A DNA stretch of 64,000 nt from Bugula neritina (Eukaryota > Animalia > Bryozoa), in contig OZ037767.1 in NCBI GenBank assembly GCA_964035545.1, forward strand, positions 12,571,801 to 12,635,800, written 5' to 3'. Below, one piece after another: positions 1-44,100 of the stretch. A model generated the notes under the pieces. The model was not told where the DNA came from. It did not search any database and worked only from the letters and a program-made list of their open reading frames with translations. The position numbers and the translations under genes are program-made. The stretch's first letter is position 1, and every line of letters begins with the position of its first letter.

Positions 1-751
1 TAGGAGTTGTCACCTTCATAAAATTATTATTGTTTCCTATGAGCACATTGCTGTGTTCCTATCATACACGTCCTCCAACAATACTTTACCTTTGAATTCT
101 CTAAACATGGTTACTTGAAACACAGAAGCTGAACTTTGGTTGCTCTCACGTATTAATAGTCTTTGATAGCCAAAAGCCACTTTGTCTGTCACGTGGTCTT
201 ATTGACACAGTCAGATGTGTTTGTTACCAATCAACAATGCAATCCCTGGGACAGAATTTCTGATAAGGGTATTTCCCCCCAACTTAGGAGTTTTTATAAT
301 GAGGTGCTGTTGCCAATGAAAACCACTCTTACAGTTGTTGGAATAGACATAGTGTGGTATATGTAAATATTGTTTCTATAGACTTTTTGCTATGAGCAGT
401 TTAGTGAGAGGTGCAGAAAAATAAAAAGAGTTGATTGAGTAGAAAGAGTGAAATAGAAATTGATTTAATATGCCTTTAATTCAGGCAACTATGCGAGATG
501 CTCCTGTGTCAATTGATTTGAGAAAAATATCATAATTATATTTTATTTACATGATTAAAGTACAACATATTCCATATGTGCTACTTCTTCTATCTCCTTA
601 CACTTCTCTCCCTTTTCACGTCAGCAGCAAAGTTCTGTTACCTTTGGCAGTCTCACCAAAATAATATTATAGCTACAGACAAAAACATTGCAGCCTTTCA
701 GACTAAGTTAATGATCATTTGATAAGATAAACTCTGAGCATATCCTTCAAC

Positions 752-3499
752 ATGGTAAGTACTGATCTTATGTTCTGTATTCTTTAAAATAACTTTAGGA
801 AGACATTTTTGGAAAAAAATACTTTCAAATGTTTATGTTTTGCATTTTATAGTCTGAAATGTTTATGCATTAAATAATAAAAGACCATATTGCAATTCTG
901 TAAGGTAATAATATTATATACAAAAACTCACAAGATGCCGTATTTTTCATACAAAATGGTGATTCTGATATATTTATTAGGAAGAGAAGCAGATAAAGAA
1001 AGAGCCAACAACTCCAACATGGAAGGAAGTATTGAGAGGAAGTACTCACTGGATTGTTGTGGTACTCTGTATAATTAATCTCATCCTTTGGTTTGCATTG
1101 CTGACGTACACAGTGACTCAGTTCTCCTCTTTGGACAGAGAGATTGAAAGCATCTCAGTTGCTACTGAAAAGAAACCGTCTGCTGCGAAATTGACACAAA
1201 CTAAACAGGAAGTAGAAGAAAAACTCATAGTGAGGCTCACAGATGAGATAAGAAACATACGGACAGAAAGCGAAAGAGAAAGAAAGAGTATAGAAAGAGA
1301 AACCAAAGAGTTGAAGGAAACGTTGCTTTCACTTGAAACACAATATGATAACTTCAAAAGATTCTGGAAGAAGATGGTAGAGAAAGTAGGTAGTCATTAG
1401 TTCTGTAATTCACATGAAACAAACATAGCCAGCCATTTCTTGATGGTTGCTAGAATAATATTGTACTGTAGGTTCTCTTCCATGAAAATAATAGAAGTGA
1501 AGTGAGAGCAGAGAGACCAGAAGTATCTGCAAGCTTTGTGTTTATTATGACAAACACAACAACTGAGAGTGAAAGTGCTGACTCAGGTAGTGGCGAATCT
1601 CCAATTCTGATTGGTGGAGAGGTGCTAAAAGATACCAATACCGGTGTGTTTAACTACTCACCTTTGCAATCGACAAATGAAAGTGTTGTTTACAACACTG
1701 AGGCAGTGACCAACATCACTCAGGGAAACCAATATAGCTATGAACCTAGGATAAAGAAGACAAGTCTCAGGGACTTTCATCAGACCTCTTTACCAAATGA
1801 AGAAAGTGACTCCAGCTATGATGACACCAACCTACCTCTACCTGAAGAAATTATTGGACTTCTTGGTGAGTATTTTTTAGTCTCAAGTCGGATCCGGTAT
1901 TAAAGTTGGGTCACTCGCGTGATGATAATCACACTACGTGATTCTATATATAGCTTGTAGACATGGACCAAAGGGGGACAGAGGAGATGGTGGAACACAC
2001 GGGCTTCCAGGTAAAAATGGTGCACCAGGCTTAAAAGGAGAGCCTGGTGTTTCCGGATCGGTCGGAGCTCAGGGTGCAAAAGGTGATAAAGGAATGAGGG
2101 GAGATAATGGTGAAGTCGGAAAACCCGGCAATCCTGGAAGGGCAGGAACTTCTGGAGAGAAAGGAGACAGAGGGATACCTGGAGAAAAGGGATCCATCGG
2201 AGTCAAAGGAGAACCCGGTGTGAGAGGAGTTCGTGGGTTAAAGGGATATCCTGGTAAACTGGGATTGCAAGGAGGTCGAGGTGTGAAAGGTTACTGCTAT
2301 ATGACTATCAGTTTATATTTTAATTTGAAGTATGACATCATCAAATTATGCAACTATTTGCTATCATTATATTTATGCCTTGCCAAGTTTTTTATATTTA
2401 AATCTGATTATTTGTTTTTTGACTGGTTTTTGTTCATTTTAGGTAATCAAGGACTCACTGGGGACAAGGGAGATTCTGGCTCACCTGGATCACCTGGAAT
2501 ACCTGGATTAGGTGAGATCTCAATAGCTTTGTTACATACAGCATTGTATCTACCTGTATGATTTGTATCTACCTATATGTTTCTTGGTAGATGGTAGAAA
2601 GGGGGATAAAGGAGCGAATGGAATTCCTGGACTTCCAGGAAAAGATGGTAGAGAAGTTGTGATACCTGATTTGTTTCCTACAGACGTTATATCTACTATA
2701 ATGAATACAACTCTAGAGCTCATGGAGATAGGTAAATATCTACTAATATAATGAATATACAATTCTAGGGCTCATAGAGATAGGTGAATATATAATATAA
2801 TATAATGAATACAACTCTAGAGCTCATGCGGTAGGTAATATATATATTATAATAAATACAACTGTAGCATTATGTAATTTACATGTACACTACAAAAACT
2901 GGCTGAAAGCCAACACTCAAGTTATCCATTCTATGGGTAAAAATATGTACCAACATTATTATAAATACAGCCTCAATTCAATATTAATCAGTTTTCTTTT
3001 CTGTGTAGAAGTGAAACAACTTGTCGGCAGATTTTGATAGTATGTCTGCTTAACATTCAGGTGGGTTACGAGGACCTCCTGGATTAGATGGAACACCAGG
3101 CACTAATGGTATAGATGGAACACCAGGTGTAAATGGAATACCCGGTACAGATGGAACACCAGGTGTAGATGGAACACCAGGTACAAACAGCTCCTCAACT
3201 CTGTAAATTTTAAAACATGCAATAAGCAGAGAAATTAATCCTCATTAAATGTCAATTATTCTATTTAACTTTAATTGTGCATAACATGTACTTCAGTTAG
3301 TCTTATATTCTCAGTCATTAGACACTTTATAATGTGACTTATGATGAGTCTAACATGCTGTAGGAGAAGATGCATTGAGCAGTGAAGTTGTTGATATTTT
3401 ACTTCAGGCCTTGACTAGTGGTAAGTGGTATACTGATGATACGTTATAACTCACACGCACACACAAACACACACACACAAACACACACACACGCACACA

Positions 3500-3590
<91 letters not shown>

Positions 3591-5873
3591 CATTTTGAAT
3601 AACTTGAACTGTAAACTTGACTTTATTGGCAATTGTACACAAAGTATAAAGTTATTGGATTTGTTTAATTTCACATCAATATTCACAAATTTTATACTGG
3701 TTTTAAGGGGAAGTCTTTCTGATTGGTACAACTTATTATAGTTACCATAACACTTCTATGAAAAATTGGCAAGATGCCAAAAACTTCTGCACGCAGAAAG
3801 CAAGTGGGAAACTCGCTCAGATACCAACTTCAAGTACAAAACGCCAAAGTTTGTTTAGCAAACTGGGAACTTTTAAAGGTTAGTGCAAATCACAGAATTA
3901 TATATTTTACTAATTTTAGCTCTCTGAATTTGGGTCTCACTACATTGATACATTGATTACCTAATAAACATTTCTATCACCTAGTATATTACTTTTCAGC
4001 ACAAAGTGAATAGTACTGTTGATGTAGCATTATTTCAGCAACATTCAGAGTTTTGCACTTGGTGAAATAAAATATTACTTATGTTACGTATGCAACGGAT
4101 GCTGCTACAGCCCTGACTATGACAATAAATAACAGCCATATAGCCATGAAGCTTCTATTATAATTTTGTATTATGACCGGCTATCACTAAAAAGCTATGT
4201 AATATTTTGTATATAAACAGTGAATTTTCTCTGAGCTAATTGTATTTTTCTGGAATTCATGTATACGACATTGTATGATATCTACATAAATTATCCTTTC
4301 TACTCAAGAATACAACAACTTAAATATTTTATGATAGCAAAAGTGTAAAAGTAACATGCGTATATCAAAACACAAATGAAGCAGAATATGTTGAGAGTAT
4401 CAATTGAGTGTTAACAATAATGGATATAGTCGACTTATAGATAGCCCATTTAAAAACATGAAACATTTTTGGCTTTGTTTTATATGTCAGAAATTGCTTC
4501 AATTGAGTACATTTCATAATTCTACAACATTGCGTTACGATACTGAAAGTTCATTGTTAATTGCAGGCCTGTATAATGTTGTTTGGGTTGGAGCAAGTAA
4601 AGTTTCTGGCACTTTTAGTTGGGATGATGGCAGTTCTATTCCAGACTCCCTCTGGCATTCTGGACAACCAGATAATTATGGTAATGTTTGCTCTGTAAAT
4701 TCCTGTATAAATAACAGCAAACATAGATTAGACAGTCTGAGAGTGAATGAAGTTATCTTCTCATGTTACTGTATCAGATTAACTGGTCATATTTATATAT
4801 CAGACACCATTATAATAACATACAGCATAGTTTGCTTTTGGTCTGCAACAAAAATCAATCAACTTGTTGTGACGGAATGCTCTATATGATAATAGTGAAG
4901 GTGCCAACATATAAATATGAGCAGGTGGAGCTCATCAACACTAACCTTTGTTGCTATATATCACTGTGAAGCCAACACTCCACTGATTTCAAATCTGCAA
5001 GTATTGTTTTGTATCTAGAAGGGTTCTTGCCTGAAAGATGTGGATATACAGAGGTTAGCCAAAGTTCAAAGGGGGCATCATGAAATCTTAAATATACAAT
5101 TATTTGAGTAGTCTAAGTTTAATATTCAAAATACTTTATTGACATATTTTAAACCTATTTTAAACTTGTGAAACTAAATCTTAAAAACTTGTGACTAAAA
5201 ATTGATGATGTATTGCTTGTTCAGATGTATCTGATATTTTCTAAACTGCCAATTTTTGCAGTATTATCTAGAAAAAGATTTTTTGCATGTAGACACTCTA
5301 TGGTGTCCTTATAAGTCATTCCATTTTCTAGTCTATTCTGACCAACAGAACTTTTTTCACAGCCCTAAAAATCAAGAAAGTTAAAATCGGAGTTATCTCC
5401 TGCATTTTAAAATTTCTTTTTCGGTTTTTAGTCACAATTTTCCTGGAAAATAGTTTCATAGGTTTAAAACATTTTCAGAAATTATTTTAAATATTAAACT
5501 CAAATTACTTAAATAATTGCATATAATTTAAGATTTTATGATGCCCTCTTTGAAAATTGGCCAACCCCTGTATACCCACCCCTTTCAATACAAAAAAAAA
5601 TTGAAATCAGTAGAATGTTGGCTTCGCAGTGATATATAGCAACAAAGATTAGTGTTGATGTGCTCCACCCGCCTATTTTTGCGTAATGGCACCTCCCTCC
5701 CTATAATTCATTATGGCTGATGCTCTTAGTAAAGTATTGACTAATAATAACTGATGTTCTTTGTTATTGCAGGGGGCCAAGAAGACTGTGTTGAGTTAAG
5801 GTTAAACTCTGGAACGCTGAATGATCTTTCTTGTAGCCGAGAGCGACCTTTTCTCTGTCAGATTTCTATTTAG
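752..5873 (+). CDS. Type II membrane collagenous C-type lectin (collectin-12/scavenger receptor with C-type lectin-like), ~636 aa, 11 coding exons
   Basis: Exons 752-754, 981-1385, 1472-1865, 1954-2289, 2443-2511, 2591-2731, 3061-3180, 3364-3420, 3708-3878, 4567-4680, 5773-5873 all have GT-AG boundaries and join in frame (1911 nt). Domain order: short N-tail, TM helix (WIVVVLCIINLILWFALLTY), E/K/L coiled coil, acidic S/T spacer, Gly-X-Y collagen blocks, then CTLD (NWQDAKNFC...WVG..FSWDDGS..W..GQPDN..EDCV..LND.SC..PFLCQ). AATAAA near 6148. Confidence 0.88.
3452..3588. repeat. (CA)n microsatellite
   Basis: Direct CA run in the intron after exon 3364-3420. Confidence 0.98.
4892..5705. mobile_element. 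Foldback/MITE-like element with long diverged inverted arms (~300 bp each)
   Basis: Left GGTGGAGCTCATCAACACTAACCTTTGTTGCTATATATCACTGTGAAGCCAACA matches the reverse complement of TGTTGGCTTCGCAGTGATATATAGCAACAAAGATTAGTGTTGATGTGCTCCACC; similarity continues between ~5030-5200 and ~5425-5590. Confidence 0.8.
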
Positions 5874-8800
5874 GAACTGAGTCTACACATTAAACAATCA
5901 GAGTTTAGCTATAATATGATATTGTTATACCATATCATACTGTGATATGATATTACTATAATATATCATATTGAAATATAATATTAATATGATATTATAC
6001 TATGTTATACTGTAATATACTATGACACTATATCATACTATAAGATGATAATATTATACGATATCATATTATATATTACACTGTACTAAATAATTATACT
6101 ATACTATACTGTAATATATAGTATTAGGCTACTATATCATACTGAACCAATAAATAAAACTTCACTAATTATTAAAAGAAAAATTACAATGTTTTATTTC
6201 GTCAACTGTAAATCACTTTAAAGCAATTGTTAGAAATATAAAAAGTGGAAAAAAGTTTTATCAGCATATAAATTGTATTATTATCATGATTAATTGGTTA
6301 TAATTATTGAAATCAATCAAATTTTTAGTGAATACAATTTAACAAATAAATAAATGATGTAGTTGCAAAATCGTTTAAAAATATATATTTAGTTCACTTA
6401 AAAGTTGAAGTGGTATAATATTGTAAATTATAATGAGAAAACTTGAAAATTGTTCAATATTGTATTACCATTATTAATGATAAAGTGATGCTATAAGTTT
6501 TTTATCAAATATTATTATGCTTGCTTTTTGGCTTACTGTTATATAATCACATCTCGGCTTATCTGACAGGTGCATTTGGTGGGAATAAGAAAGAAAGCAC
6601 CTGCACTTTCCTTGTCATGCTGATATACTCACATTTACTACAATGATTCATTATCATATAAGCCAGTCATATAAGTTTGTCATAGATTGTTATGAAATTC
6701 CCAAAGTATTTGTATCAGTTTGAAATTTCCAAATATATAATATAGTGTAATTAATAGCTTATAACATCGAAATGTATGGGTTGTAATAACCTAATTGAAT
6801 ATTTTTTTATCTGCCTTTGCATTATTAAAACTCTATCATAAACTATAAATTATGTTTTTACATAATATATTGTCGAAGTCTAAATTAGAACACTTTTTCA
6901 AACTTTAAATGACCAAAATAAAAAACTTTGTATGCAAATGATAATCAGAGATGCAGAATAAGGACTGATTTACTGGTCAATTCAGTTGCTTGTGCAGAAA
7001 TGTAAAAGTTATTTTGCACAAAAAGCTGAAAAAAATATTAAAATGAAGCAGTTAATGCTTTCTTTTCTTTGTATAAATGTTTTGTTTCCTCACCAATACT
7101 GTTTTATGATGCAACTTTCGGCTATATTTATATGAATTATAAAATTAGGGGTTAGCAGGGAAAGTAGCGGGGCGTGGAAGGGGGTAGTAAAAGGGTGATA
7201 GAGAGTGATAGGGGTAGCAAGGTGTAGTAGAGGTAGGTTATAACTGGTGATGAGTTAAAACAATTATAGTGGTGGGGTGTAGTAGAAAGGAGTGGTGGGA
7301 AGGGAAGTAAAGGGCTACTAATAGCTAGAAATATGCAAAAATTTAAAAAATATTTACAAAAACTAAATTTTATCCATGATCCTTATCCATGATCTAAATA
7401 AATAGAGTATTAACTTGTTTTTACATTGCTGCAGGTTATGAAGTTAGTAGATCAGAATGTAACGGCCAGCATGGCTTTTTTGTAACTCATCCTGTTGGTA
7501 AAAATAGCTAGAAACCAAAGTATTGAGAATGCACTCACAAATTAGTTATACTTTATTTTTCAAACCTATTGTCATTAAACTTAAGCTATAAACTTGTTTT
7601 CCATAGAATTAGCAGCTGTTTTGAGCTGTTATGTTAGCCAACACATCTTGTAAACTAGCTAGCTATATAAGGCTTTGTAGGCTGCACACGTGTTTGTTTT
7701 AGACTTGGCCTAGTCATGGTAGGCCAAGTGCTAGGGCCATGACCAGTGCAGCAGTTTTATAGAACTAGTAGAACCAATCAATTTTCAAATTGCCTCATGG
7801 CATCAGTCAAGACTTACGGCTCCAATAAAGTACCAATAACACCATGATATACAAACGGCGCTACATAGAGCATGCAATTTTTTATATTATTATGTAAATT
7901 AGTAGATAATTACTAAAAAAACATTAATTACAATCCAAGTAGTATATACGATCAAAATAATGCTCAACTACAAATGATTATAGTATTGTTGTAGTATAAA
8001 TGTCTATATAGCCACATATGCAACTGCACGTTCAAAATAATTATAATAGTGCTATGTAGCCTGTTTGTTCAATATATGAATTTTTATTTAATTTATCTAG
8101 TTAAATTTTGGTGGTTTAAAAGAGAAGCTTATAGCTCTTTGTTTCAAAGAATCCTTCTCACCATTTATTATTATACCTATATTTAGTTCATTTAGTTTAA
8201 ACAGTAAACTCATATTTAATTTATTATATTTTATTTACTTTGAATTAAAATTAAACTATTCATTTAGTTTGTTATCACTGTTTTGTGTCAACAACAAACT
8301 GACTGTAAAGTTATTTAAAGAAGCAGCTTGTGATTAGGTGATGGCTGTACTAGAAATTCAGAGAATGTGTAACTCTATAAGGTCTAGAATGTGGGAAAAG
8401 AAGTAGCATAGCAACTCCCACTAGAGTTTATTCTGCCAACTCTTCATTGTATGATGGTTGTATTGATGAAACTGATAGCTTTGGTATATATTATATAGTC
8501 ATTAGTGCATATAAATAAGGCAGGTGGCTGCTAAAAGTAGTTATAATACCAATTACTATTTACTAATACTATATACTCTAATGTTAAACACTTGTGTTCT
8601 AAAACTTTTATAGCTGCAGACATCTATTGTAGCAGTGGGCTGCAAGTATAATTATTGTCAATTTTCATGCCATGATGCTGGTATAGTGCCTACTTTCTAA
8701 TATTTCATATTAGACTTATAAATTGAGGGTATTTCAATTATGAATATTTCAAATTGTATAAACTTTTACACCAATTAAAATACTTCTTTTAAAATAAAAT

Positions 8801-9795: not shown

Positions 9796-9902
<107 letters not shown>

Positions 9903-10104
9903 TAGAAATAGCAGCTGCACTTTTGAAATTTTGTGGAGTCTGCATATTTAAAACCAGGGCTTTTTAGCGCAATAGCAACCAATATACATGCAGATTCTAG
10001 CAGTATTTTTAAACAAATTATCAAGTTATTCCATAAATATTTCCTAAAAATACTTCAAATACTTTTGAAGAATTTGTTTACATGAAATAAAATGCATTTT
10101 GAGT

Positions 10105-13100
10105 TCATTTATTAGCTGTAGACCTGTTTCTCAGAACGCAAAATAAAGTCCTTTTTAATGGATAAAGAATTCTGTTGTAGCCTTGAAATATATGTTGCCT
10201 CCGCCAGCTCTACAATCACAAAGTTTGCATGTATTTATAAATTATGTATTGAACTTTGAAAGAATGTCTAAGATCAATTTAGTAAAATTTATTCTCTAAA
10301 AAACTTAATAGATAGAAAAATAATTGCAGTATAAGAAAAATTATTTTATCTGGTTAACAGCTGAAGAGAGAGTATTTGGAAGCAGATGCGTATACAAGAT
10401 CAACAGCTTTTCTATACAGCTATATATAGTAACTGTAAAATAATTTTTCCGTTAGGGTTTGAACCACATGTAGCATTTTGGCTTGCAATCTGGCGTACTA
10501 ACTGTTACAGTACAGGGGCTACTAGATTATCTCAACTCTACCTCTCACCCAGTCCCCTAGAGCTCTTTTACACCCTCTCCCGGCCCCCTTATTTATACTG
10601 CTTTCTGTAAGGAAGGGGTGTACAGGCCCCTATAAACTCTCTTGAGAACCTCTACTACAAAAAGAGGCCGCTGGGTTATATTAAGGCCACAGTAACCACT
10701 AAATAAAATGTATACAAGTAAAAACAAATTTAGCAGAGATAGTAATTAATTCAGAAGGTAAAGCTAACACGTACCTGAGCAATGTGTGCTGTCGTACAGG
10801 TAAGGTGGCAAGGGGGATGACTCAACTGACATATAGCTTCAAGAATAGATACAAGGAGCTTCTCCTTTGTGCTGCTGATAACCTCCGAATATATCCGTGA
10901 TGAGACAGACATATGATGACTCATGTTTATGTTGCAATAGTAAGATGCTAATTGATCTCTTAATAGCGTCTCATTGTACTACAAGTATTCATTAAACTAG
11001 AGGCTTTGCAGGTAGAATTTTTCCCAATGAGTTACACAAGTTTTTGATTCCAACAATTTTATTTAATAATTTAAATTATAAAATCTATTACAAAATTATT
11101 TTTATGAAATAATAGAATTTAGTTTATATAGTTCAAAGATATGCTTTTACTTTTGTGATTTATATATATTATGTCATGTCTGCTAACGTATATTAAACGT
11201 TTTATAGGAGTTGCACACTTTCTGAATTACTTTAATCTAGGTTTGTACGTGAACAATTGATTAATAATAGGTCAACTGTCACTAAAACCTGTTAATACTA
11301 TAATATGAATTGAAAGGTGTCGAATATAGTGAGTCTACCAATTTTATAAAAACTAAATTCTATGATATAGTGAAGAATAAATTATAAAATTGCAGTTTTT
11401 GAGATAAATAATTACCATCTTTTCCTGGTTTTAAAACAACGGAAAAATATTTAAAAAAAACACTATGCAGGTGAAAATCAGTCATTCTCAATTTCCTTAA
11501 AAATGCGAACACAGCTAATTATTACAAGAAGCCTGCACTGAAAGTTGAAGCTTATTAAGTGCAGATAACTCCAAGTTACCTAAAATATATGCCATCATGT
11601 GCTGGTGCAACTGCCATTTCATGTATCTATAGTGCAATATATAATTATTTTAATAATTAATTCAATTACAATCACACTTACATTTACAATTACAATTTCA
11701 TGTCTTAAATTATTAAAACATATTATAATACTAAATTTTCATAAGTTCAGCAATAAAACCCTCAAATAATTCTAAAAGCATACATGTATGCTGAGACAAT
11801 AGCAAATTTTGTAGTAAGCAATTCATTTAACAGTGCACTCCTTATTTATATATTCTTTCCATTTCATGCAAATACTTTTAAAATATTCAGTTCAAATAGA
11901 CTTTAAATAAGAATTTAAATGACTTACAGTAATTGCAACATAGTTGCTACATGGAACTACTGATTGAGACTCAACTTGTGTGTGAAGTCTATCCAGGTAG
12001 TACTTCTACAATTATATATGTTATATGTTATATGTTATATACATTATATTATGTATATAATTACACACACGTGATCATTGTGAGCTTTTACATGTTTATT
12101 AAATAATATCTAAACTAATTCAACTTTGAGAAAAGAAAAGATCTGTGTTACCAAGTACTAGTGGTTAGTAATAGTCATTAAATCAATGTTTCATTTATAA
12201 TTTATAATACTGTTTTGATCTTACTGAAGTATTAGGTTGAAGTGAATAGTAATATTTTTATATAATCTGATTATGATAAAAAATATGATTATACACAGAG
12301 GTCATGGATTACTGCAAGCAGCCTTTGTGTGCCAAAAGGGAAGAAATATTCAAAGGAAATATGTGATCCGTTGTAATTACAGTCATTGTTTCTAAAGAAT
12401 GTAGCATTCCACCCAAAAGTATAATTATACCCAAAAAAGTAGTGGGTGTGGCTTGTTTATCACAGCAAAACAATGCAGTCTGAGTTACAAATATTCAGCA
12501 GCCTTCTCAAGTTACAACTTCGGGCCCAGCATAGCATTTCAATAAAATCTTATTCCTAACAAACCAAGTAGTGGATATAACAGCAGGCAGAAGGTGGACT
12601 ACTTACATAAGCTTCAATACTGTCATCTATTCTACTGTTAATCTGTGCAAAGTGGCTAGCTAATTGTAGCCACTGTTCATAGCTAGAGTCTGAGGAGTGT
12701 CTTCTCACCCTCCCTAATATTGATGAGGACACACGGCTATATCTACAGGTAAAGTGTACAATTTTATATACAACATGGGTTAATGAGTGATTTGTTTAAT
12801 AGCATTATATTATGTTTAATATCTTAAATAATTATAGTGTTAAATTGTTGCAGTTCATTATTAAAGAAAGATGAAAATGAACTTTGAATAATAAATCCCT
12901 TGCCTATACACATAAGGTGATTGCAAATGTGCAGTTAAAATAAAATAGCTAGAAAAGAGCGTAATGGATCAGTTACATAATGAAGATTTTATACAAAGTT
13001 ATTACAGTGTTTGAAAAAACAAAAAATAATATAAAAGTGGTTACTATAGCACTATAGTGCTTTATTATATAGATATTATGTTATATAGCATTTATCAACT

Positions 13101-14130
13101 ATAAGTGATATGAATTGTTTCTTATATTATATAATAATTATACTGGTTTGTGTCCAAATTTAGTTTTGACAAATTGCAGTTTTGATAAAAATTTAATGAG
13201 AGATTTATTTCTGAACAGATAATGCATGTTGAGGTTTTTCAGTAGAAGCTAATATAATTGCCTTTTTCCAATTAGCTATTTAATCTACAAACAATTTCAT
13301 TATAGGACTGTAGAAAACCTTAAAGCTTTTTTAGAGCGCTAATTTCTTAAAATTACTTTTACAAGTTTTATTATTTAGTAAACAAACATTTTTCTATAAA
13401 ATTTCAAAGCTAATGTTATTGCATGTGCAAATAGGCTAGATTAGAGTTTCACATAAATATTCATGTTGCACTTCAATTGACCCTTCAAAGTTTTTACCAC
13501 CACATAAACAACTCTATCTAATGGAAATAGTGTGTTATTGAAGTAAATTTCTATCTTAACAAATGCAATAGGCTTATAGAAAGATAGGAAATGTAATATG
13601 TTTACCAACCTGTTGGGAGGTGAGTTTTCTTTTGCCAAAGGTAATTTTACGAGGCCATAACTCCCAACGTAACTAAATAGCAGAGATATAATTGTTGATG
13701 AAAGCACAACTCTCTCCACTGTAAAATACATTCAGAAACTAATAAATAAAGATTTTACACTATAGCTGAATTTTTATTACTATAGAACAAAAATACATAT
13801 ATCACTTAGAAGAAGTTAATACTTTTTTTTAAATTGTACTATTTTTACAAAATTTAAAAGAGGATTGTTTATAGAAAGTAATTTTTAAACAATTTATATT
13901 TTATATATAGTTTTTGCTATATATATATATATATATGATGTTATGTGATTTAAAAAAAACTCTAATATAATACTGTCAAGCATATAGTAATATGCTTGTT
14001 ACGTTGTACAAAACATCCAACCCTATGATTACTACAATGTAACTGCAAATTATATAAATTTTGGTCGTATTTCAATATTCAACAAACTATAATAACTTTG
14101 CTTACTGCTTATAAAAGCTGTCTTCTCCAT
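10105..14130 (-). CDS. Putative secreted precursor, 218 aa; candidate long-chain four-helix (IL-6/G-CSF/Upd-like) cytokine
   Basis: Exons 14130-14106, 13718-13610, 12742-12607, 12005-11928, 10978-10775, 10209-10105 all have YAG/GT boundaries, intron phases 1,2,0,0,0, and join into one open 657-nt frame: MEKTAFISMERVVLSSTIISLLFSYVGSYGLVKLPLAKENSPPNRYSRVSSSILGRVRR-HSSDSSYEQWLQLASHFAQINSRIDDSIEAYKYYLDRLHTQVESQSVVPCSNYVAITYNETLLRDQLASYYCNINMSHHMSVSSRIYSEVISSTKEKLLVSILEAICQLSHPPCHLTCTTAHIAQSWRRQHIFQGYNRILYPLKRTLFCVLRNRSTANK. The gene itself is well supported; the cytokine identity is inference. Confidence 0.8.
10448..10525 (-). mobile_element. tRNA-derived SINE-like head / tRNA-like pseudogene (same family as 41527-41600)
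   Basis: Minus strand TAGTAGCCCCTGTACTGTAACAGTTAGTACGCCAGATTGCAAG...GGTTCAAACCC: A-box-like and B-box-like motifs; aligns by eye with the 41.5-kb copy. Confidence 0.55.
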
Positions 14131-14151
14131 GACTATAAGATATCTTCCGTC

Positions 14152-14188
14152 AACTAATCATCTTACCGCTATGTTGCTCATATTTATA
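14152..14188 (-). promoter_or_regulatory. TATA box and initiator-like core promoter of the cytokine-like gene
   Basis: Minus strand TATAAA (14188-14183), TTAGTT Inr-like motif ~33 nt downstream, ATG at 14130 about 25 nt further. Confidence 0.55.
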
Positions 14189-15695
14189 GCTGAACATGTT
14201 ACGGTGTGAATTCAGTTCAAGTGTGAAATTTTAATGAATATTGACACTATTTTTTATTGGAGTAATTTGAAATAATATTATATTACACTCTTTCCACCTA
14301 CTTTTGACACTTGGCTTTATTTTTAGAATCAACTTTCAATATGAGATGCCACGCTGAAAGTCCTTAGAACCAGGCATCATGTACCAATGTACCTGACAGG
14401 TATGTCTTGCATAACAAACCATTTTGTGGAGCAACTCAATCACTTTTAAGCGTTTCCCAATAATAATTCATAATAATTGTTTCTCCATTAATTCCTGTAG
14501 CTGTTGTGTAGAAAACATATAAAATCCTAAGCATATGCAATCTTAAACTTTTCCTAAAAATAATCAATAAAAATTATTTCTCTATCAATGTTTTGTAGCT
14601 GTTTGGTAAAAATATATACAATGTTTTCAAATTTTGCTAATTATAACAAGTATTTGAAAACAAATTTTTAGTGCAAAAAACTGCATTTAATTAAACAATT
14701 AAAGCTTCCTTCACTTTGTAATAGTAGTCTACAATATCTTGCAACAAATAATCATTTTACATAACTATGCTGTTTATGATAATCATTTATTCAAATATTA
14801 ATATATTTACAAAAAAAGCATTGGCTGGGAAATTATAAGCCCTGAAAATTTGCTGCCAACTAAATAGAACATTCCATATTTGAATGCAACAAATGGTCTT
14901 GGGGTTATTATTATAGCTAGCTCGGGCAAAACTTAGCAATAACTCTTTTTCTAGATTACTGCTATGAGGCCTACTGCTATGTGAATCCCTTAACATTTTA
15001 AAGGCTCAAGGCACCTAAAATAGTATAACATTCTTCAACCAAATCTAGTGCACATTCAGGAAATGACACAATATGTTACAGAAGCATATATGGCATATGT
15101 AGCCTTTTTTCGACATAGTATAATATATAGGACTATATTATATTTGTACAATACTTAAACATAAATAAATCTAGCATATCACTCAATACCATGGCATAGC
15201 TTAAAATAATTCAGCATTCAAGATGAAATGATGTACATTTGATATATTTATATTTTATTTGTACATTTATAATACAATGTACCATAATATAATACAATGT
15301 AATATTATACAATAGAATATAAAATAATGCACTATATAATTTTTTTTCTCTGCGTTATATGTAACATATGTGCTGCACTACTAAACATTAATTTTTCTCT
15401 AATTTATGTAACCAATTCTGTAATTTTGCAGAAATCTCATTTTATATCCTTCTACTACAATAAAACTTTTTTTTAGTAATTTCTACTCAAATAAGTAATG
15501 TAAAATGTGTTTAAATTTTGAGCTTTTCCTTGTAATATTTTGTCATAGATTTATTATTTGTACATTAAATGAACGAAACTTATAATTCTTTGTATTTTCT
15601 TTCAGGTATTAGATTTTTAAAGTAAATAATTAGTGTAAAGTTTATATAGCAATATTGCTCAATTGTATTCCAGATTTTATTGTACAGCTTATATA

Positions 15696-20056: not shown

Positions 20057-23000
20057 ATGTCATCAGATGGGCCGAGTGAGGCAAAGCGGCCAGCCTTGCA
20101 AGCGGCGTCTGTGCGCACTAAAGGCACAAAGAGAAAACAGCCTGCGGTATACAGCGGCAGCAAAGACAGCTGTTTGGGCAGAGATTCCGGCATCACATGC
20201 CCCATCTGCTTCAACATCATCGAGTCAGCGTACATGACTGAATGTGGTCACAGCTTTTGTCAAAAATGCATTGAGGCCAGTTTGGATAAACGCAACCAGT
20301 GCCCAAAGTGCAACTTCACCTTACAGCCAGACCGTCTCTACCCTAACTTCACACTCAACGAGGTTATTCTAAAACATAAACAGAAAGTTTCAAACAGTAA
20401 CCTCCTTGTCTCCAGCTCCAGTCTGAGTGTTAGCAGCGTTGTGGACAGCTTGCTGAATGATGAGCTAGATAATAAGATCAGTTACCAGAACGTTAGTTCT
20501 ATTATTAGTATTCTCGAACAGAAGAGAAAGCGTCTTCTACTTGAAACGGAAATCGGCCATGTTAATTTGACTCTCGACTTTCTAAACCAAATGAAGTCTC
20601 TAAAGGAAACAAAGTTGCAAATGCTACAGCAGGAAATTTCATTGATCTCAAATGACGTGGACACAGTGAGTGTATATTTTATTGCAAGACATCAAATGAC
20701 TTTGTAAACATGAAAACTCTGTTGCTCATCTCCACTTGTCTACTTATAAATTTATTTTAATTGATTTCATGATACCCTCAGTGATACTGGATTTTGTGTT
20801 CAATATGAACAATGACAAGATTTAATCTTTTCATATTAAAATTTAGTAATGGCTGAAATCATATCAGTATGTTTCACAGACTAGTAAACCATGCATGCTC
20901 GGTGGTGTCTAGTTTTAGCAGTTGACTTTGAATACTGAGATAACGAATTCATTTTCTGATTCGTTACGTATTCCCAATGATGTCTTCATCTCCTGTTTAT
21001 CCTCTACAGGTGAAAGACAAGGCAGCCTGTCTCAGTCAGCAATTCACCATTGCCCCGTCTTCCTCTCTAACCAACGGGGAGGTGTCCAAAGAGCCAGTAA
21101 CAGATGCTGCCATCCGACAGCGTATTGACCTCCACTCTAATGATCTCCAAGACTACTACTTCTCTATACGCAGCAAAGCTATGATCGGTGATGCCTCGGA
21201 TGACGGCAGCTTAGATGACTTCACCTCTGGTCAGTGTTTACTGTAGCTGTCGGCTGCCAAACTTGTGTGGCAGCATCATGAGTCATCGCATTGGTTTTTT
21301 GTTATTTTCATGTTTGACATTTCTGCCATATAAAAGATGTTGTGACATTTTTTTGCTTTGCAGCGATCTTTCTTGTTGGGTAGTTTACTGAATGAAAACA
21401 TAAATTATATCAGAAAGATGACATTATATTACTAATTCTACTGTATATTACAGAGTATACACTCTATTACTAATTCTACTGTATATTACAGAGTATACAC
21501 TCTATTACTAATTCTACTGTATATTACAGAGTATACACTCTATTACTAATTCTACTGTATATTACAGAGTATACACTCTATTACTAATTCTACTGTATAT
21601 TACAGAGTATACACTCTATTACTAATTCTACTGTATATTACAGAGTATACACTCCATTACTAATTCTACTGTACATTACAGAGTATACACTCTATTACTA
21701 ATTCTACTGTATATCACAGAGTATACACTCTATTACTAATTCTACTGTACATTACAGAGTATACACTCTATTACTAATTCTACTGTATATTACATATTGC
21801 AGCCCTCTCTAAGTTTGTGAAGTATAAAGAATTCCGTCAACTCGCCACTCTCAACTACACTAGTGACATGTACAACATGTACAGCATTGTGTCCAGTATT
21901 GAGTTTGATAAAGACTCGGACTACTTCGCTATTGCCGGAGTTACTAAGAAAATAAAGGTGAGGGCATATACACTACCCTGTGTCATGTTTATCATGTCTT
22001 TCGGGGATTTTATATTGTATTCTGATAATATATGCTATGATCTTATACTACAATCTTTATATATAAATAATTGTATAATATTATATCTATTGGGATTCAA
22101 ACCTCTTGTTTACCAAGCTAGTGCTCTAACCTTTATAGCCTGGCCACACGATCATGAGAATCACAGGAAATCGTCTATTTGACACCAAAAAATTATTCGT
22201 ACGAAAAAGGTTGAGGGAATTCAAACAAAGTCGTCATCGTTGGGTGTACACAACGATGACGATGGACGAAAAATCACAATCGACGATGAATACCATTTGA
22301 TTGGTCAATAGATTTTTAGCAACAGTAATCATTTCATTTCTACCACGTTTCTCTATTTGACAATTTTTTGCTGTTTGTACCTCACAGACTATTTATTATG
22401 TGTTTCCTCCGACGAGTGTGTGGCTGGTCAAAACAAGAGGATAACTCACGAAAATCGTCACACGATTTCAAAAGATTCTCACGATCGTGAGGCCAGGCCT
22501 TTAAACTACGGCTACTACATCTAATAAATTGCCTGCAGTATAAATATTATATAACACTGTACTATATTACAGTACAACAATATTATGTACATATGTTTAT
22601 TATCTTAAAGAAATATATGATGATATACAATGTGTGTAGTAACAGAGGGCTGCTAACCTAGTCAAGTTTTAAAGGAGATTAAGGAAGCTCTAGTAACATT
22701 ATATATTCAACTGTTGTTCCTGGTAGCGCCATGCACTTGCAGTAGGATGTTCAGATAAACAATCTGATGTCTATTGTTGTAATTAGAAGTTGTTTCCTCC
22801 CAACACATGTGCTGATGCAATGGCAGAGTTATGAGGTTGTGGTGTGTTAAGTACACCTTGTGTTGAAGATGTTTCTATAGGCTGTGATATGAGTCACTTC
22901 CAATACTGCTTTAAATGTATATATATAGGATATCATGTTACTAGTTAATATGTTAAGTGGTTAGAGTATAGTAGTTCTACCATGATTAATATACTTCACC

Positions 23001-26000
23001 TTCTCTAAGGGGTTAAACCCCTACACCCTTAGTCTTTCCTATAGGAACTGAACCTTACAGTCATCAGTCTCTCAGTCCCAGTGAAAGTTAGATTACTGTA
23101 ATCTATGATGTGTTATTGTGCTATAATATGATAATTGTGTATCAAACTGTTATACAGTATGATAGTGTTGCATAGTATGTAGTATTGTAATATGCTATTC
23201 TGTGTATTGTCACTGGTATACAGTATTATAGTAAAATATACTATATATGAATATTAATGTAATATAATATATACTATATACAACTACTAACATAACACAA
23301 TATATACTATGTGTGAATACTACCATAATATAATATATGTTATATTATATTACAGGTTTATGACTACAAGCAGGTAGTTACTGACGTCGTGGATATGCAT
23401 TACCCTGTGACAGAAATGAGTTGTGCCTCCAAAATATCCTGTGTAGCCTGGAATCCTTACCACAAGAACGAGTTGGCCAGCAGTGACTATGAGGGGACCG
23501 TCACCATGTGGGACCCTTTCAGTGCCAGTAAAACCCACGTCTATCAGGTACTCTCCCCCTCTCTCTCCCCCCTCTCCCCCTCTCCCCCACTCGCTCCCCC
23601 TCTCCCCCCTCACTCCCCCTCTCTTCCCCTCTCTCCCCCACTCGCTCTCTCTCTCCTTCTCTCTCTCTCTCCCTCTCTCTCCTACTCTGAATTGTAATTT
23701 ATTTGAAGTACTCTGTTCTCATCAACTAAAAAGCAGGTGATGAGTTGTGTTGTTTGCGTTGCTATAGTAACAAGTACCTCTTAATGCTGGTATTCTATTT
23801 TTAATTGTAGGAACATGAAAAGAGATGCTGGTGTGTAGACTTCAACAGAATGAATCCCCATTTGATGGCTTCGGGTTCTGACGATTCCAAAGTAAAAATC
23901 TGGTCTACTAACACTGCCCGCTCCGTGCTGAATATTGAAGCCATGGTACTCGGTCTATGTGTAGATTACTTATTGGCTATCATTCCGAGAACAAAATGTT
24001 TATTTTATGCCTTCAAAAACCACTATCTATCTACCATATGTGTCTCACAAGCTGATATGCTTTCAAGATTTTCGCCTTATTAAAAAATTTATAGTGAGGA
24101 TTTTTCCTGAATTAGTGCGAAATAGTGATGCATTTATTTTTTCTTTATATGTCATTTGCCATGCTCGATGACCTTTTAAGGTCATACCACAATTAAGTTG
24201 CTGCCGTAAGTAGAAGTGTTGACACGTGCATATGTTGAGTGACTTGTAGGCAAACGTCTGCTGCGTGAAGTTCAACCCTACGTCCAGCTACCACTTAGCC
24301 TTTGGAGCTGCAGATCACTGTGTCCATTACTATGATATTAGGAAACATTCTGAACCCCTCCTCACTTTTAAAGGTTTGTGCAAATAAAACACATGTTTTA
24401 ATTTGCGCATTTACAAATGAATATAACTTTGTGTTGACGATACGATAGTCAGCTAGAATCAATATTAATATCTGAAAATGTTTTATTTTTGTAGCTTTTT
24501 TTTACTTTTTAATGACTCGTTTGTATTTCCACACCTTGTTTGTCATTATGTAAGCTGCTGAATGCATCTAAACTATTGAAAATTTCCGTTCATAAATTTA
24601 AAAAAATGTTTTATTCATTGAGAGTGAATATTATTCTCAATAGCAGTGAGTATAAGGATTTATCTTCCCTCTGTCAGGTCACCTCAAGGCCGTATCTTAT
24701 GCCAAGTTTCTAAATGGAGAGGAGATGGTGTCAGCCTCCACTGATAGTCAGCTGAAACTCTGGAATGTCAAGAAAGGTTTGTAGACCAGCTAGATAGAAT
24801 ATTCTAGAATACTTCCTACTTATATATAGACTGTCTACTGCTTATATATAGACTGTCAACTGTTTATATATAGACTGTCAATTACTTATATATAGACTGT
24901 CAACTACTTATATATAGACTGTCAACTGCTTATATATAGATATCAGTTATAGTTTACATATATTATCTAACTATATTTAGAAACATTGATCTGATTTAGA
25001 GTAGTTTTGCACTCAACAGGTATTGTTTTGGGAGTTGCCTCTCACAAATACTGTTTACCCTAATTTCAATTCATAAATTAGAAGTTATGTACCCTGCTTA
25101 TTTCTAGCACCTGTTTTGTTGAAGACACTTTTAATTAAGTTTATCTTACGTATCAAATTGAATGTAAAGGTTTAGGTAAAATGATGGTACAAAGAAATCG
25201 CTTGATGCAGAACATAGTTTGGGGCCACAAAGTGAAGTGTGGTTTAGAGTTCTAGTTTGAACAGTTATGTGTATACTAATACTGCGCTCAGTGACCCCAA
25301 ACCTTGTGCTGCCTTTAACGATTCCCATCATACAATGAGTTTCCTAAAGAACTAGATGAATGAACATATGGTTAATGGTTAATACTTTTTTATGTTGCTG
25401 CATGTACATACCCAGTGATGGAGTTGGTGTTACTTACGTCTATGTACAGTTCTGTATGGCACTAGGATAATATTTATTGCTTAATTTCTTGACTCTCTTT
25501 GCAAGAGCTGAATATTCACATGTGTTTCTGCCCACTAAATATACTCCACTGTATGCAGGTAAATATACTCTACTGTATGCAGATAAATATACCCCACTGT
25601 ATGCAGGTAAATATACTCCACTGTATGCAGGTAAATATACTCCACTGTATGCAGGTAAATATGCTCCACTGTATGCAGGTAAATATACCCCACTGTATGC
25701 AGGTAAATATACTCTACTGTATGCAGGTAAATATACCCCACTGTATGCAGGTAAATATACTTCACTGTATGCAGGTACGAGTGCTGTGAGGACTTTCAAA
25801 GGTCACATCAATGAAAAGAACTTTGTTGGCCTCGCCTCTGACTCTGATTTCGTAGCATGTGGTAGTGAGGACAACTCCCTCTGTGTCTACTACAAGGGAC
25901 TCACCAAAATACTTCACAAGTAGGTTGTATCTTGTTGATTTATTCAGCAAAACCTTTCTCAGCAAATCTCAAGACAAATTTAGATGTAAAAGGAGGTGTT

Positions 26001-26874
26001 AATTCTTATTTGCCCAATGGTAGTTTGCAAAACTTTTTCTGCAAGTCTACATAACGGACAATGCTACTTTTTCAATTTTTATTTTAAGACTTTATTGAAG
26101 CTGTCCACTCATACCTGTTTTATTTTCCATTGAATCATTAAAGTGCACACAACTCTCTTTTCATTAAAAGCAATTTCTCAATCTAAGTTCCTTTTTTTGT
26201 TTAGCCTTGCCAGCCAGAGTTCTAGTGGAGAACTCTTGTTCTATTTTACCTTGCTTTTGCTGTGTGTACAACTTGACTCCTACTTTACTATATTGCTTCT
26301 ATCAGAGGGTGTCTCTAATTACATTGTTATATATTCACCCTGCCATAGCCCTATCACTGAATACCATAGTATCCTAGGCTGTAAAATCATGATTACATCA
26401 CGTTTTAATTACTTTCACATTCAGTGGCATGTGATTAGAATGTGAAAATGATATTTAGGCAGATCTAGGTATTTTATTGACCATTTTCTATCTTCAAAGC
26501 CTCCTAAAGAAAAGTGCTAATGAGAAATTCAAATTAGACTGAAAAGCACACAAATTATGAAAAAAGTATGAAAAAAATGAGTGCATGCATTTATGCAGAA
26601 ATAGCAGTCACAATTTTTACAAAAAATTGAACTGTGTTGTGCTCAGTTTACAAAGTGTTGCTGTAATGATATTTTTTTGCATTCATGTAGTCTGTATGTT
26701 ACTTTTCTGCATTCTAGGTACAAGTTTGACATTGTAAGGTCAGTCTGGCAGCGTGACGCACCAAGAGAGGAAGACTCCACGGAATTTGTGTCAGCCGTAG
26801 CTTGGAAACCCGACAGCGGTGTGATTGTTGTGGCGAATAGTCAGGGTATCGTTAAAGTTCTGGAGTTGGTATAA
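20057..26874 (+). CDS. COP1: E3 ubiquitin-protein ligase COP1 (RING - coiled coil - WD40), 9 coding exons
   Basis: Exons 20057-20665, 21010-21229, 21803-21957, 23356-23547, 23811-23945, 24250-24373, 24678-24776, 25775-25919, 26718-26874 join in frame. [27 protein letters not shown]1-typical motifs [77 protein letters not shown]. Confidence 0.96.
21427..21794 (+). repeat. 38-bp minisatellite, ~9.7 copies, ending at a COP1 3' splice site
   Basis: Unit TATTACTAATTCTACTGTATATTACAGAGTATACACTC. Confidence 0.95.
22091..22515 (-). mobile_element. tRNA-derived SINE head interrupted by the MITE
   Basis: Removing the MITE and one TTA restores AGTAGCCGTAGTTTAAAGGTTAGAGCACTAGCTTGG...GGTTTGAATCCC, collinear with the copy at 48750. 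Confidence 0.6.
22136..22500. mobile_element. PIF/Harbinger-like MITE with TTA target duplication
   Basis: TIRs TAGCCTGGCCACACGATCATGAGAATC / GATTCTCACGATCGTGAGGCCAGGCCT; TTA at 22133-22135 and 22501-22503; internal palindrome 22230-22263. Confidence 0.8.
23550..23688 (+). repeat. CT-rich low-complexity tract directly after a COP1 donor
   Basis: CTCTCCCCCTCTCTC... begins 2 nt after the GT at 23548. Confidence 0.95.
24816..24941. repeat. ~21-22-bp minisatellite, ~5 copies
   Basis: Unit CTTATATATAGACTGTCAACTG, ~40 nt downstream of the donor at 24777. Confidence 0.9.
25537..25776 (+). repeat. 24-bp minisatellite, 10 copies, spanning the COP1 exon 8 acceptor
   Basis: Unit AAATATACTCCACTGTATGCAGGT; the last copy supplies the CAG|GT at 25774/25775. 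Confidence 0.97.
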
Positions 26875-41100: not shown

Positions 41101-44100
41101 AGGCCCTACCTCAGAGCTAGGGCTGACACCGCACGCCCCCTGTAACTTCTCAACAAGGTCAGAATACTGTTTAGTCAGCGTGTTAGCCACATGACCTAGC
41201 TCCGCTGCCGTTTCAGGGGTAGATGACTTGCCCACCATTTCCTGTGAGAGCTGAGCGATTCGCTTACATAGCTGCACCATGGAGGTTTGGTAGTCGACGA
41301 ATGAGATGCCAGGAGTCACTACGGCAGTTTGGAACTCAGTCTAATAAACACATAGAACTCAGTCTAATAAACACATAGAATTCAAGTAAATAGAAATAAT
41401 ACAATTAGTTAATATAAATAGAAACCAAGTCTTCTGATGGACTAAATATACATGACTAAGTGCAATGAGTAAGTAGACAGAAACAAAATAAACCAAATAA
41501 TTAAAGATGTAGAGATGAGTATTCCAGTAGCTCTTGCAGTGTAATGGTAAGCACACCGGCTTGCAAGTCTGAGGTCTGCAGTTCAAATCCCAGTGAGGGA
41601 AAATATTTTACAAAATACACGTAACTTGAAGGCAACTTTTCAAATATGAGATGATAGCAACTCAGCTAGTCATACTAAAAGTACACGTGTACCCAACTCA
41701 GCTAGTTATACTAAGAGTACATGTGTACCCAACTCAGCTAGTTATACTAAAAGTACATGTGTACCCAACTCAGCTAGTTATACTAAGAGTACATGTGTAC
41801 CCAACTCAGCTAGCCATATAAGAGTACATTGTGTACCCAACTCAGCTAGCCATACTAAGAGTACATTGTGTACCCAACTCAGCTAGTTATACTAAGAGTA
41901 CATGTGTACCCAACTCAGCTAGTTATACTAAGAGTACATCGTGTACTCAACTCAGCTAGTTATACTAAGAGTACATGTGTACCCAACTCAGCTAGTCATA
42001 CTAAGAGTACACGTGTACCCAACTCAGCTAGCCATACTAAGAGTACATTGTGTACCCAACTCAGTTAGTCATACTAAGAGTACATGTGTACCCAACTCAG
42101 CTAGTTATACTAAGAGTACATGTGTACCCAACTCAGCTAGCCATACTAAGAGTACATTGTGTACCCAACTCAGTTAGTCATACTAAGAGTACATCGTGTA
42201 CCCAACTCAGCTAGCCATACTAAGAGTGCATCGAGTACCCACAAGAAGGTAAACCACAAACCTTGGCGACAGCTTTACTGATGTTATCTATCATAGCGGT
42301 GACAGCGCCTCCCGCACTCGCTGCCTCTTCCATGCTCTTCAGCAGATCCTGAGTGACCTCTTTGAGGTGGGAGGCAGCTTCGTCCATGGCAGGGTGAACT
42401 TGCACAGCTTTAGAGTTACCCCCACTCTCCTGTACATTATACAACATGGTGCTATTCTGAATAGTTCCAACAGGAACTTATCACAGAGTGGAAGGATATT
42501 CACTTAAAACACAACAGAAAGAAAAAATCTTTAAATCGCATAATGTTTAGAATACAAGAAAGTAGCATTAGGGTAAACAAAATAAGCAATCATTTAATAT
42601 AATAAGATAAACTTTGGCTAGATAAACCCACCTTGGCTAGATGTACCCACCTTGGCTAGATAACCCCACCTTAGCTAGAAGAAACCTTGGCTAGATGAAC
42701 CCACCTTGGCTAGATGTACCCACCTTGGCTAGATAAACTCACCTTGGCTGGATGTACCCACCTTGGCTGGATGTACCCACCTTGGCTAGAAGAAACCTTG
42801 GCTAGATGAACCCACCTTGGCTAGATGAACCCACCTTGGCTAGATGAACCCACCTTGGCTAGATAAACTCACCTTGGCTAGATAAACGACTTGGAGGCCG
42901 GATTCCGCTACGGACTTGGTCTGTTCCAATATGGCCGATTGCTGCCGGGAGTTGTACATCTTAGAGGCACACCCGATGCCTCCTTCAGTCAGCGGGTCAA
43001 AGTAGTTGGATATGAGAGTCACTCGGTGGCCTAAACAGAGAGAGTGAAGAGCTTAGCCAGTGTTTTAACTACTTAGTCTATAGTAGAGGGTGGGGGAGGT
43101 ACACTTTATGACTCTCCACCACCAACTAACACTAGGGAGCTGGGATGATATTACAATACTCTTACATTACACAGACTTGGCAATTTCCAACAATATAGAG
43201 ATGAAGTGAAGGTGAGATAAAGACAGGAAGAAATTGAGATGAAGGCGGGATAAGGTAAGATAAAAGTTAGCTAAGCATCACCAGACTCACCTAGTGTCTC
43301 CGCCTCGTTCTTGGCAGCGTGCACCAGGGGGTCAACATTAGCTAATATCTGCTTGCAGCTGCTGATGACCTGCTCCTGGAACCCCTGGACAGTGTTCACT
43401 TCTCTGGGGGTCAGCGACTGACTCATGACAGCGAAGGCGGCAGCATCTAGATCTACAGTGACAGCTAGTATTTAGTACCTGGGAGGTAACATGTGATTTA
43501 GGCAAAGGCATCAGGTAATTGGGCTCTTCATAGACGAATCCCCGACACTCCATTTATGCAGTAATAAACTAGCCTACTTATATATCTTATAGCTATCACT
43601 TCCAGACTGTTTGAGGGTTGTATGCTCAAGTAATTTTGTTTTATAATGGATTTTGTGTCAACAATTCTTAAATCGATTTGGGATTTCTGATCAGGCTATC
43701 TGAAAAAATTAAAGTTTAAACTTTGAAACCAGCCCAGTATTGCAGCAGCTATGAATAGCATGTAATGAAAGTCAGCAATAGTTACTATTAGTTTTATAGC
43801 ACCACCAACTCCAGAGCCGACTGGAGACATCAGCAAGTGATCAGAAATCTGAAATTAATTAAAACATATTTGCACAGAATTTATTATATATAAAACAACC
43901 TTCAAACAGTCTGTAGATGATAGCTATAAGATATATAATATGAATATTTCATTACTGCATTAATGAAGTGTGTCAGGAATTCTTTTCATACAAGCTGAAT
44001 AGATGAAAAAACTGTTGAAGCACTAAGAACTAGTTAATAGCCACAGATAATATAAGTTTGAATATGGATTATAGCTTCAACTACATTTCACATCAACATT

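Follow-up and report, generated by a model that had tools for sequence, protein, structure and literature searches.

The DNA considered here, called the window, is a stretch of 64,000 nucleotides (nt) from the bryozoan Bugula neritina (assembly GCA_964035545.1, contig OZ037767.1, positions 12,571,801–12,635,800). The locus of interest is on its minus strand, between positions 10105 and 14130, and has six small exons that join into a frame of 657 nt (Table 1). The frame encodes 218 amino acids (aa) and has no internal stops; splicing is predicted. An earlier reading of this DNA from its letters alone (the sequence-only reading) had proposed a six-exon gene for a cytokine, and the stop-free frame is present at exactly the exons it claimed. 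All five introns display GT and AG at their predicted junctions. Introns 1–5 are 387, 867, 601, 949 and 565 nt in length, with phases 1, 2, 0, 0 and 0. The GC content is 36–41% in the exons and 20–35% in the introns. When ranked with a generic matrix, the donors are at places 1, 5, 9, 10 and 14 among 235 GT sites; the acceptors are weaker, with ranks of 14–92 among 247 sites.

Table 1. Positions of the predicted exons, the candidate TATA box and the neighbouring genes in the window
Feature	Position	Strand	Remarks
Exon 1, coding part, aa 1–8	14106..14130	-	phase-1 intron next; least certain of the exons
Exon 2, aa 9–44	13610..13718	-	hydrophobic signal segment 12–26 and start of pro-segment (hydropathy)
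Exon 3, aa 45–90	12607..12742	-	furin-type RVRR 56–59 and helix A, last residue Tyr90 (frame, exon-only AlphaFold2)
Exon 4, aa 91–116	11928..12005	-	last part of helix A, then a predicted A-B loop carrying Cys109
Exon 5, aa 117–184	10775..10978	-	helix B (putative, doubtful), helix C and C-D loop; Cys131, Cys166, Cys173, Cys177; two sequons
Exon 6, coding part, aa 185–218 and stop	10105..10209	-	amphipathic helix D, Trp186, Pro201, Cys208
Candidate TATA box, TATAAA	14183..14188	-	58 nt upstream of ATG; putative function
Collagen-repeat multi-exon gene	about 700–5900	+	transmembrane segment, coiled coil, Pfam Collagen; C-type lectin end by eye
COP1/RFWD2 E3 ligase (RING, coiled coil, WD40)	20057–26870	+	best match Watersipora subatra XP_067941565.1
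Talin gene, many small exons	about 31500–61800	-	Pfam I_LWEQ, Talin_R4

The exon chain was also searched for without reference to the protein, as the longest chain of GT-AG exons from an ATG to a stop, and compared with locally shuffled copies and seven control stretches. On the real locus this search recovers exons 2–6 exactly, with a different first exon (14197–14167) and a total of 220 aa. The alternative first exon, also on the minus strand, carries an ATG of its own as well as a good donor, is in frame with exon 2 and overlaps the candidate TATA box; it may represent an upstream promoter or a chance occurrence. The longest chain in the seven control stretches is 154 aa. The length of 218 aa is reached by 0 of 300 shuffled copies at a donor cut-off of 1.5, by 5 of 300 at 0.5 and by 15 of 300 at -0.5. 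These cut-offs were picked post hoc because donor 3 was lost in the first run, at the stricter cut-off of 1.9, where the real locus gives only 133 aa. The six-exon locus is very probably a real gene.

Allelic differences are available from one DNA-like run (X1) and are partial, with three exonic differences and 12 of 25 indels listed. Comparison of positions 9800–14400 (4.6 kb) with this run shows 164 substitution places and the 25 indels, which suggests high heterozygosity in this region, but some of the differences may stem from repeat copies. Two of the three listed exonic differences are missense, and none of the 12 listed indels is in an exon. Positions 10540–10680 in intron 5 represent a GC-rich island in which run X1 shows elevated depth and contigs with loose ends; it has no second copy in the window and is likely a dispersed repeat. 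One X1 contig joins positions 10943 and 11059; 17 other letters stand between the two places, and the shorter side is just 21 letters long. This junction overlaps the exon-5 acceptor and is probably a chance repeat match.

The N-terminal part of the predicted protein has a hydrophobic segment at aa 12–26 with a mean Kyte-Doolittle value of 2.04 over 15 residues, and by this measure of hydropathy the signal proposed from the sequence is borne out. A furin-type motif, RVRR, is at aa 56–59 and is followed by a mature part of 159 aa. Six cysteines are found at positions 109, 131, 166, 173, 177 and 208 (spacings of 21, 34, 6, 3 and 30), and N-glycosylation sequons are at aa 118, 134 and 212. The pro-region, the mature length, the cysteines and the sequons are thus all in the frame as first described. 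Long-chain cytokines are secreted precursors with mature parts of about 150–200 aa, and the 159 aa and the hydrophobic segment fall within this description. Together with the cytokine-like exon layout, these properties support a secreted, helix-rich precursor with a furin site.

Structure models represent single unspliced exons (AlphaFold2, run on a single sequence for exon 5), and amphipathy was assessed by comparing hydrophobic moments with those of shuffles. The model of exon 3 shows a 27-residue helix at aa 63–89, which begins just past the furin site and has predicted local distance difference test (pLDDT) values of 88–96 over its last 25 residues. This segment, helix A, is amphipathic, as is helix D (shuffle p of 0.006–0.03). 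For helix D the signal is concentrated in aa 191–211 (p of 0.002–0.013), compared with p of 0.11–0.21 for aa 186–211. Helix C is borderline, with p of 0.11–0.15, and is helical in the model of exon 5. The four amphipathic segments of the sequence-only reading therefore hold for A and D, are marginal for C and fail for B. Scored on two scales, a layout of four helices in which the A-B and C-D loops are long and the B-C loop is short outscores 199 of 200 shuffles, and 149 of 150 in another test. The same score in four COP1 control windows is not above that of shuffles (z of -2.2 to 0.8). A long-chain helical cytokine fold is the moderately probable interpretation of these properties.

The protein was compared by eye and without gaps with vertebrate cytokines, using the portions covered of two published alignments (PMC9601804 supplement 3 and PMC3271213 supplement). 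The matches to these partial alignments are unscored. Residues 71–90 are identical to human LIF helix A at 6 of 20 positions, and the last residue corresponds to the conserved Tyr of the family. The A-B loop Cys is 19 residues past this Tyr, compared with 16 in LIF. Further identities are 4 of 7 between aa 123–129 and human IL-11 helix B, 4 of 16 including Cys between aa 153–168 and LIF helix C, and 4 of 16 between aa 191–206 and human oncostatin M helix D, where GYxR and an Arg are shared. Single matches of this kind are attainable by free choice, and the weight of the comparison would rest on the order, the spacing and the intron positions. The landmarks appear to fit LIF, oncostatin M and IL-11 better than IL-6 or G-CSF.

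Introns 3 and 4 are both phase 0; the former directly follows the helix-A Tyr, and the latter closely precedes helix B. An intron follows the helix-A Tyr in the genes for LIF, OSM and CNTF, and an intron precedes helix B in those for IL-6 and IL-11. The candidate has a short first coding exon that ends in phase 1, and the first intron of IL-11 is 7 bp past the start. In one mis-predicted gerbil OSM sequence (in the part covered of PMC9601804 supplement 3) homology begins exactly past the helix-A Tyr, which fits an intron at this place.

The Trp that had been likened to one at the start of helix D in IL-6 is present as Trp186, but it is 4 residues, or one turn, off the site-III register based on GYxR. 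Trp186 precedes the helix-D Tyr by 9 residues; in the oncostatin M and LIF sequences of the partial alignments, the site-III aromatic precedes this Tyr by 13. The match to IL-6 Trp157 therefore depends on the register picked.

A number of observations weigh against a long-chain cytokine of the LIF or IL-6 type. The signature of IL-6/G-CSF/MGF, C-x9-C-x6-GL-x2-Y/F, has no match in the 218-aa protein. There is no F-x-x-K/R anywhere in the protein and so no FxxK LIFR-binding motif, which marks the start of helix D and is more than 90% conserved within the LIF/OSM/M17/CT-1 subfamily. The conserved Gln at or after the end of helix A is not at that place, and the helix-D Cys of the LIF/OSM-type family is absent. 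As for the disulfides of that family, the A-B loop and helix-C Cys residues are present and their partner Cys residues are absent. The helix-A and helix-D Tyr residues are 105 residues apart, compared with 125 in LIF, and each by-eye match has a register and a family freely picked from several families, with no statistical score. Helix B is the weakest element. The segment first proposed for it, aa 120–141, has no amphipathic signal (shuffle p of 0.5–0.65), and the best-scoring four-helix layout places B at 131–152. The model of exon 5 displays a helix only at aa 153–169 and strands at 127–135, 140–145 and 173–181; aa 127–145 form a beta hairpin, which contradicts a helix B there, at the low confidence of a single-sequence model with a mean pLDDT of 59. 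The layout test itself shows that the protein is rich in helices and has no bearing on topology, and Pro201 is within helix D. As for gene structure, the long-chain pattern is a short phase-1 first coding exon and then phase-0 introns between helices; of the phases 1, 2, 0, 0, 0, the first and last three fit this pattern, and there is one extra phase-2 intron. The last intron of IL-6 is directly after helix C, whereas the last intron here is after the C-D loop.

Searches with single exons of 26–68 aa as queries did not find a homologue, which is a further point of this kind. Pfam gave no match on five single exons, the Unpaired profile included, and such short queries lose weak matches. Single-exon queries are expected to fail at the divergence typical of cytokines; the blank result therefore shows neither novelty nor absence. 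No paralogue was found within the 64-kb window. Upstream of the gene there is no STAT or NF-kB site in 1.87 kb, where about 3.9 STAT-like sites would be expected, and ATTTA at the 3' end is at background level only. Nothing therefore points to immune induction, and any immune role is putative.

These properties can be accounted for in several ways. The exon chain could have arisen by chance or be a silent relic, with no such protein being made. Weak acceptors, the shuffles that reach 218 aa at the loosest donor cut-off (up to 15 of 300), the missense changes among the listed allele differences (2 of 3) and the lack of a homologue for the single-exon queries are all in keeping with this. However, the unguided search gives the same five exons, and it did not select for the signal segment, the furin site or the long amphipathic helices that the chain also yields. 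The exon/intron GC contrast, the TATA box and the listed indels, 0 of 12 (25 in total) in exons, are likewise contrary to a relic, which is very improbable. A real, secreted and furin-processed orphan protein with another fold, either of a mixed alpha/beta type or that of a helical bundle unrelated to cytokines, deserves more weight; it could be a hormone, a defence protein or a structural protein. The beta-beta-alpha-beta model of exon 5, the lack of amphipathy in helix B, the absence of a cytokine motif or a Pfam match (single exons) and the clustering of Cys166, Cys173 and Cys177, as in a small disulfide knot, point in this direction. Yet the exon-5 model, with its pLDDT of 59, matches nothing, and the long helix A, the amphipathic helix D, the ordered landmarks like those of LIF/OSM and the intron positions would all have to be coincidence. 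Another fold is regarded as unlikely.

A helical-cytokine fold may also be combined with a different class of receptor, i.e., a class II receptor (interferon/IL-10-like) or a receptor tyrosine kinase, as for short-chain CSF-1/SCF-type ligands. The bundle would be about 20 residues shorter than LIF, and its two long loops both have predicted strands, as described for IL-4 and GM-CSF in the part covered of PMC7378365. An oyster interferon-like protein is also on record in the portion covered of PMC9756803. However, the 27 residues of helix A represent a long-chain length, the intron phases and the six exons differ from the five exons and phases 0-0-0-0 of interferon genes, and a Foldseek screen, as far as covered here, gave no interferon fold outside chordates (bioRxiv 10.64898/2026.05.30.728932). 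A receptor of another class is a distinctly improbable alternative.

The preferred interpretation is a bryozoan four-helix cytokine of the LIF/oncostatin M/IL-11 type that acts via a Domeless/gp130-like receptor on JAK/STAT, and for this complete chain the evidence is evenly balanced. The sequence-only reading had suggested an orphan ligand of such a receptor. The helix-rich precursor with its furin site and the cytokine-like exons agree with this, but helix B is doubtful, and a ligand of the Domeless/gp130 type has about an even chance. The assignment to an IL-6/G-CSF-like group is not upheld, as the signature is absent and the landmarks are nearer to LIF, oncostatin M and IL-11. The protein is best listed as a candidate class I helical cytokine of divergent type that has a furin pro-segment, and a label of IL-6 or G-CSF would be inappropriate. 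According to the proposed mechanism, the precursor would enter the secretory path, where it would be glycosylated and disulfide-bonded, possibly with three disulfides. A furin-like convertase would cut after RVRR, which would remove the pro-segment of about 30 residues and release a 159-residue glycoprotein. The released bundle, in the putative up-up-down-down topology, would dimerise a Domeless/gp130-type receptor via helices A, C and D and so turn on JAK/STAT. The receptor geometry for this step is borrowed from IL-6, as given in the part covered of PMC7378365; class I long-chain cytokines bind receptors of the CHR/WSxWS kind and thereby activate JAK/STAT. A tentative evolutionary extension is that the gene is the bryozoan descendant of an ancestral bilaterian gp130/Domeless ligand, with LIF/OSM-type helix landmarks and intron positions kept since protostomes and deuterostomes split, and a furin-released pro-segment added as an activation switch.

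Of the neighbouring genes, COP1 is a useful synteny anchor. Its exon 1 gave one match among 1098 candidates in a word-index search, the COP1 of the cheilostome bryozoan Watersipora subatra, with 54% identity over 99% including the unstructured N-terminus; its WD40 exons are 77–89% identical to the best match. On the basis of this one gene and the word-index search, the window itself indicates a probable bryozoan host. A tandem repeat of about 24 nt with open frames on both strands is present in a COP1 intron (positions 25440–25800), and similar arrays are near 41930–42180 and 55620–55875. The collagen-repeat gene is tail to tail with the candidate and, judging from its sequence, may be collectin-like or scavenger-receptor-like. 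A functional link to the candidate is not indicated. A shrimp coiled-coil lectin activates Domeless, according to the portion covered of PMC5645147.

In molluscs, JAK, STAT and an IL-6R/Domeless-like receptor are present, and no IL-6 was found in invertebrates by BLAST at an identity of at least 30%; insect Upd and a crustacean lectin are the only IL-6-type ligands of invertebrates given in the sections covered of that paper (PMC13203501, 2026). Leptin and cytokines of the IL-6 family are known from jawed vertebrates only, as stated in a part of PMC12284397, and the table parts covered of PMC9756803 have no entry for a class I helical cytokine under annelids or bivalves. A literature search found no class I helical cytokine from bryozoans or other lophotrochozoans, with most subscription journals outside its coverage. 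In Bryozoa, which belong to Lophotrochozoa, JAK, STAT and a receptor are expected, with ligands undescribed. If the evolutionary extension is correct, the gene would provide the ligand of lophotrochozoan JAK/STAT signalling whose absence surveys have noted. With a ligand candidate that can be cloned, ideas on how class I cytokines originated can be tested in Lophotrochozoa, and such genes hide as small unannotated exons that sequence searches miss.

Of the cytokines already described, the gp130-LIFR ligands LIF, oncostatin M, fish M17 and cardiotrophin-1 share with the candidate, by eye, the helix-A Tyr, the A-B loop Cys, the Cys at the end of helix C and the helix-D GYxR, in this order. LIF also has six Cys and several N-glycans, which are represented here by sequons. 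Two salamander CT-1-type sequences, in the partial data covered, also have a dibasic site ahead of helix A. Unlike this group, the candidate lacks FxxK, a Gln-Gly past helix A and the N-terminal and helix-D partner Cys residues, is about 20 residues shorter, and has a 30-residue pro-segment and six coding exons; the searches did not detect any similarity. With IL-6, G-CSF and IL-11 it shares the precursor size, a short first exon ending in phase 1, phase-0 introns and an IL-11-like helix-B stretch. It also shares a Trp close to where helix D starts, although this residue is one turn out of register, and the absence of C-x9-C-x6-GL, the furin pro-segment and the extra phase-2 intron are differences from these three. 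The protein plausibly works like a LIF/IL-6-type cytokine, yet it fails the defining motifs of both IL-6/G-CSF and LIF/OSM. Drosophila Unpaired differs in that the candidate has no Pfam match on any searched exon, and homologues of Upd2 are annotated in drosophilids only in the sections covered of PMC5385356. As far as the sources covered describe them, Unpaired, which signals via Domeless-JAK-STAT, and a putative fly helical cytokine (mentioned in part of PMC2248247) are likewise secreted proteins of protostomes that have been modelled as helical cytokines.
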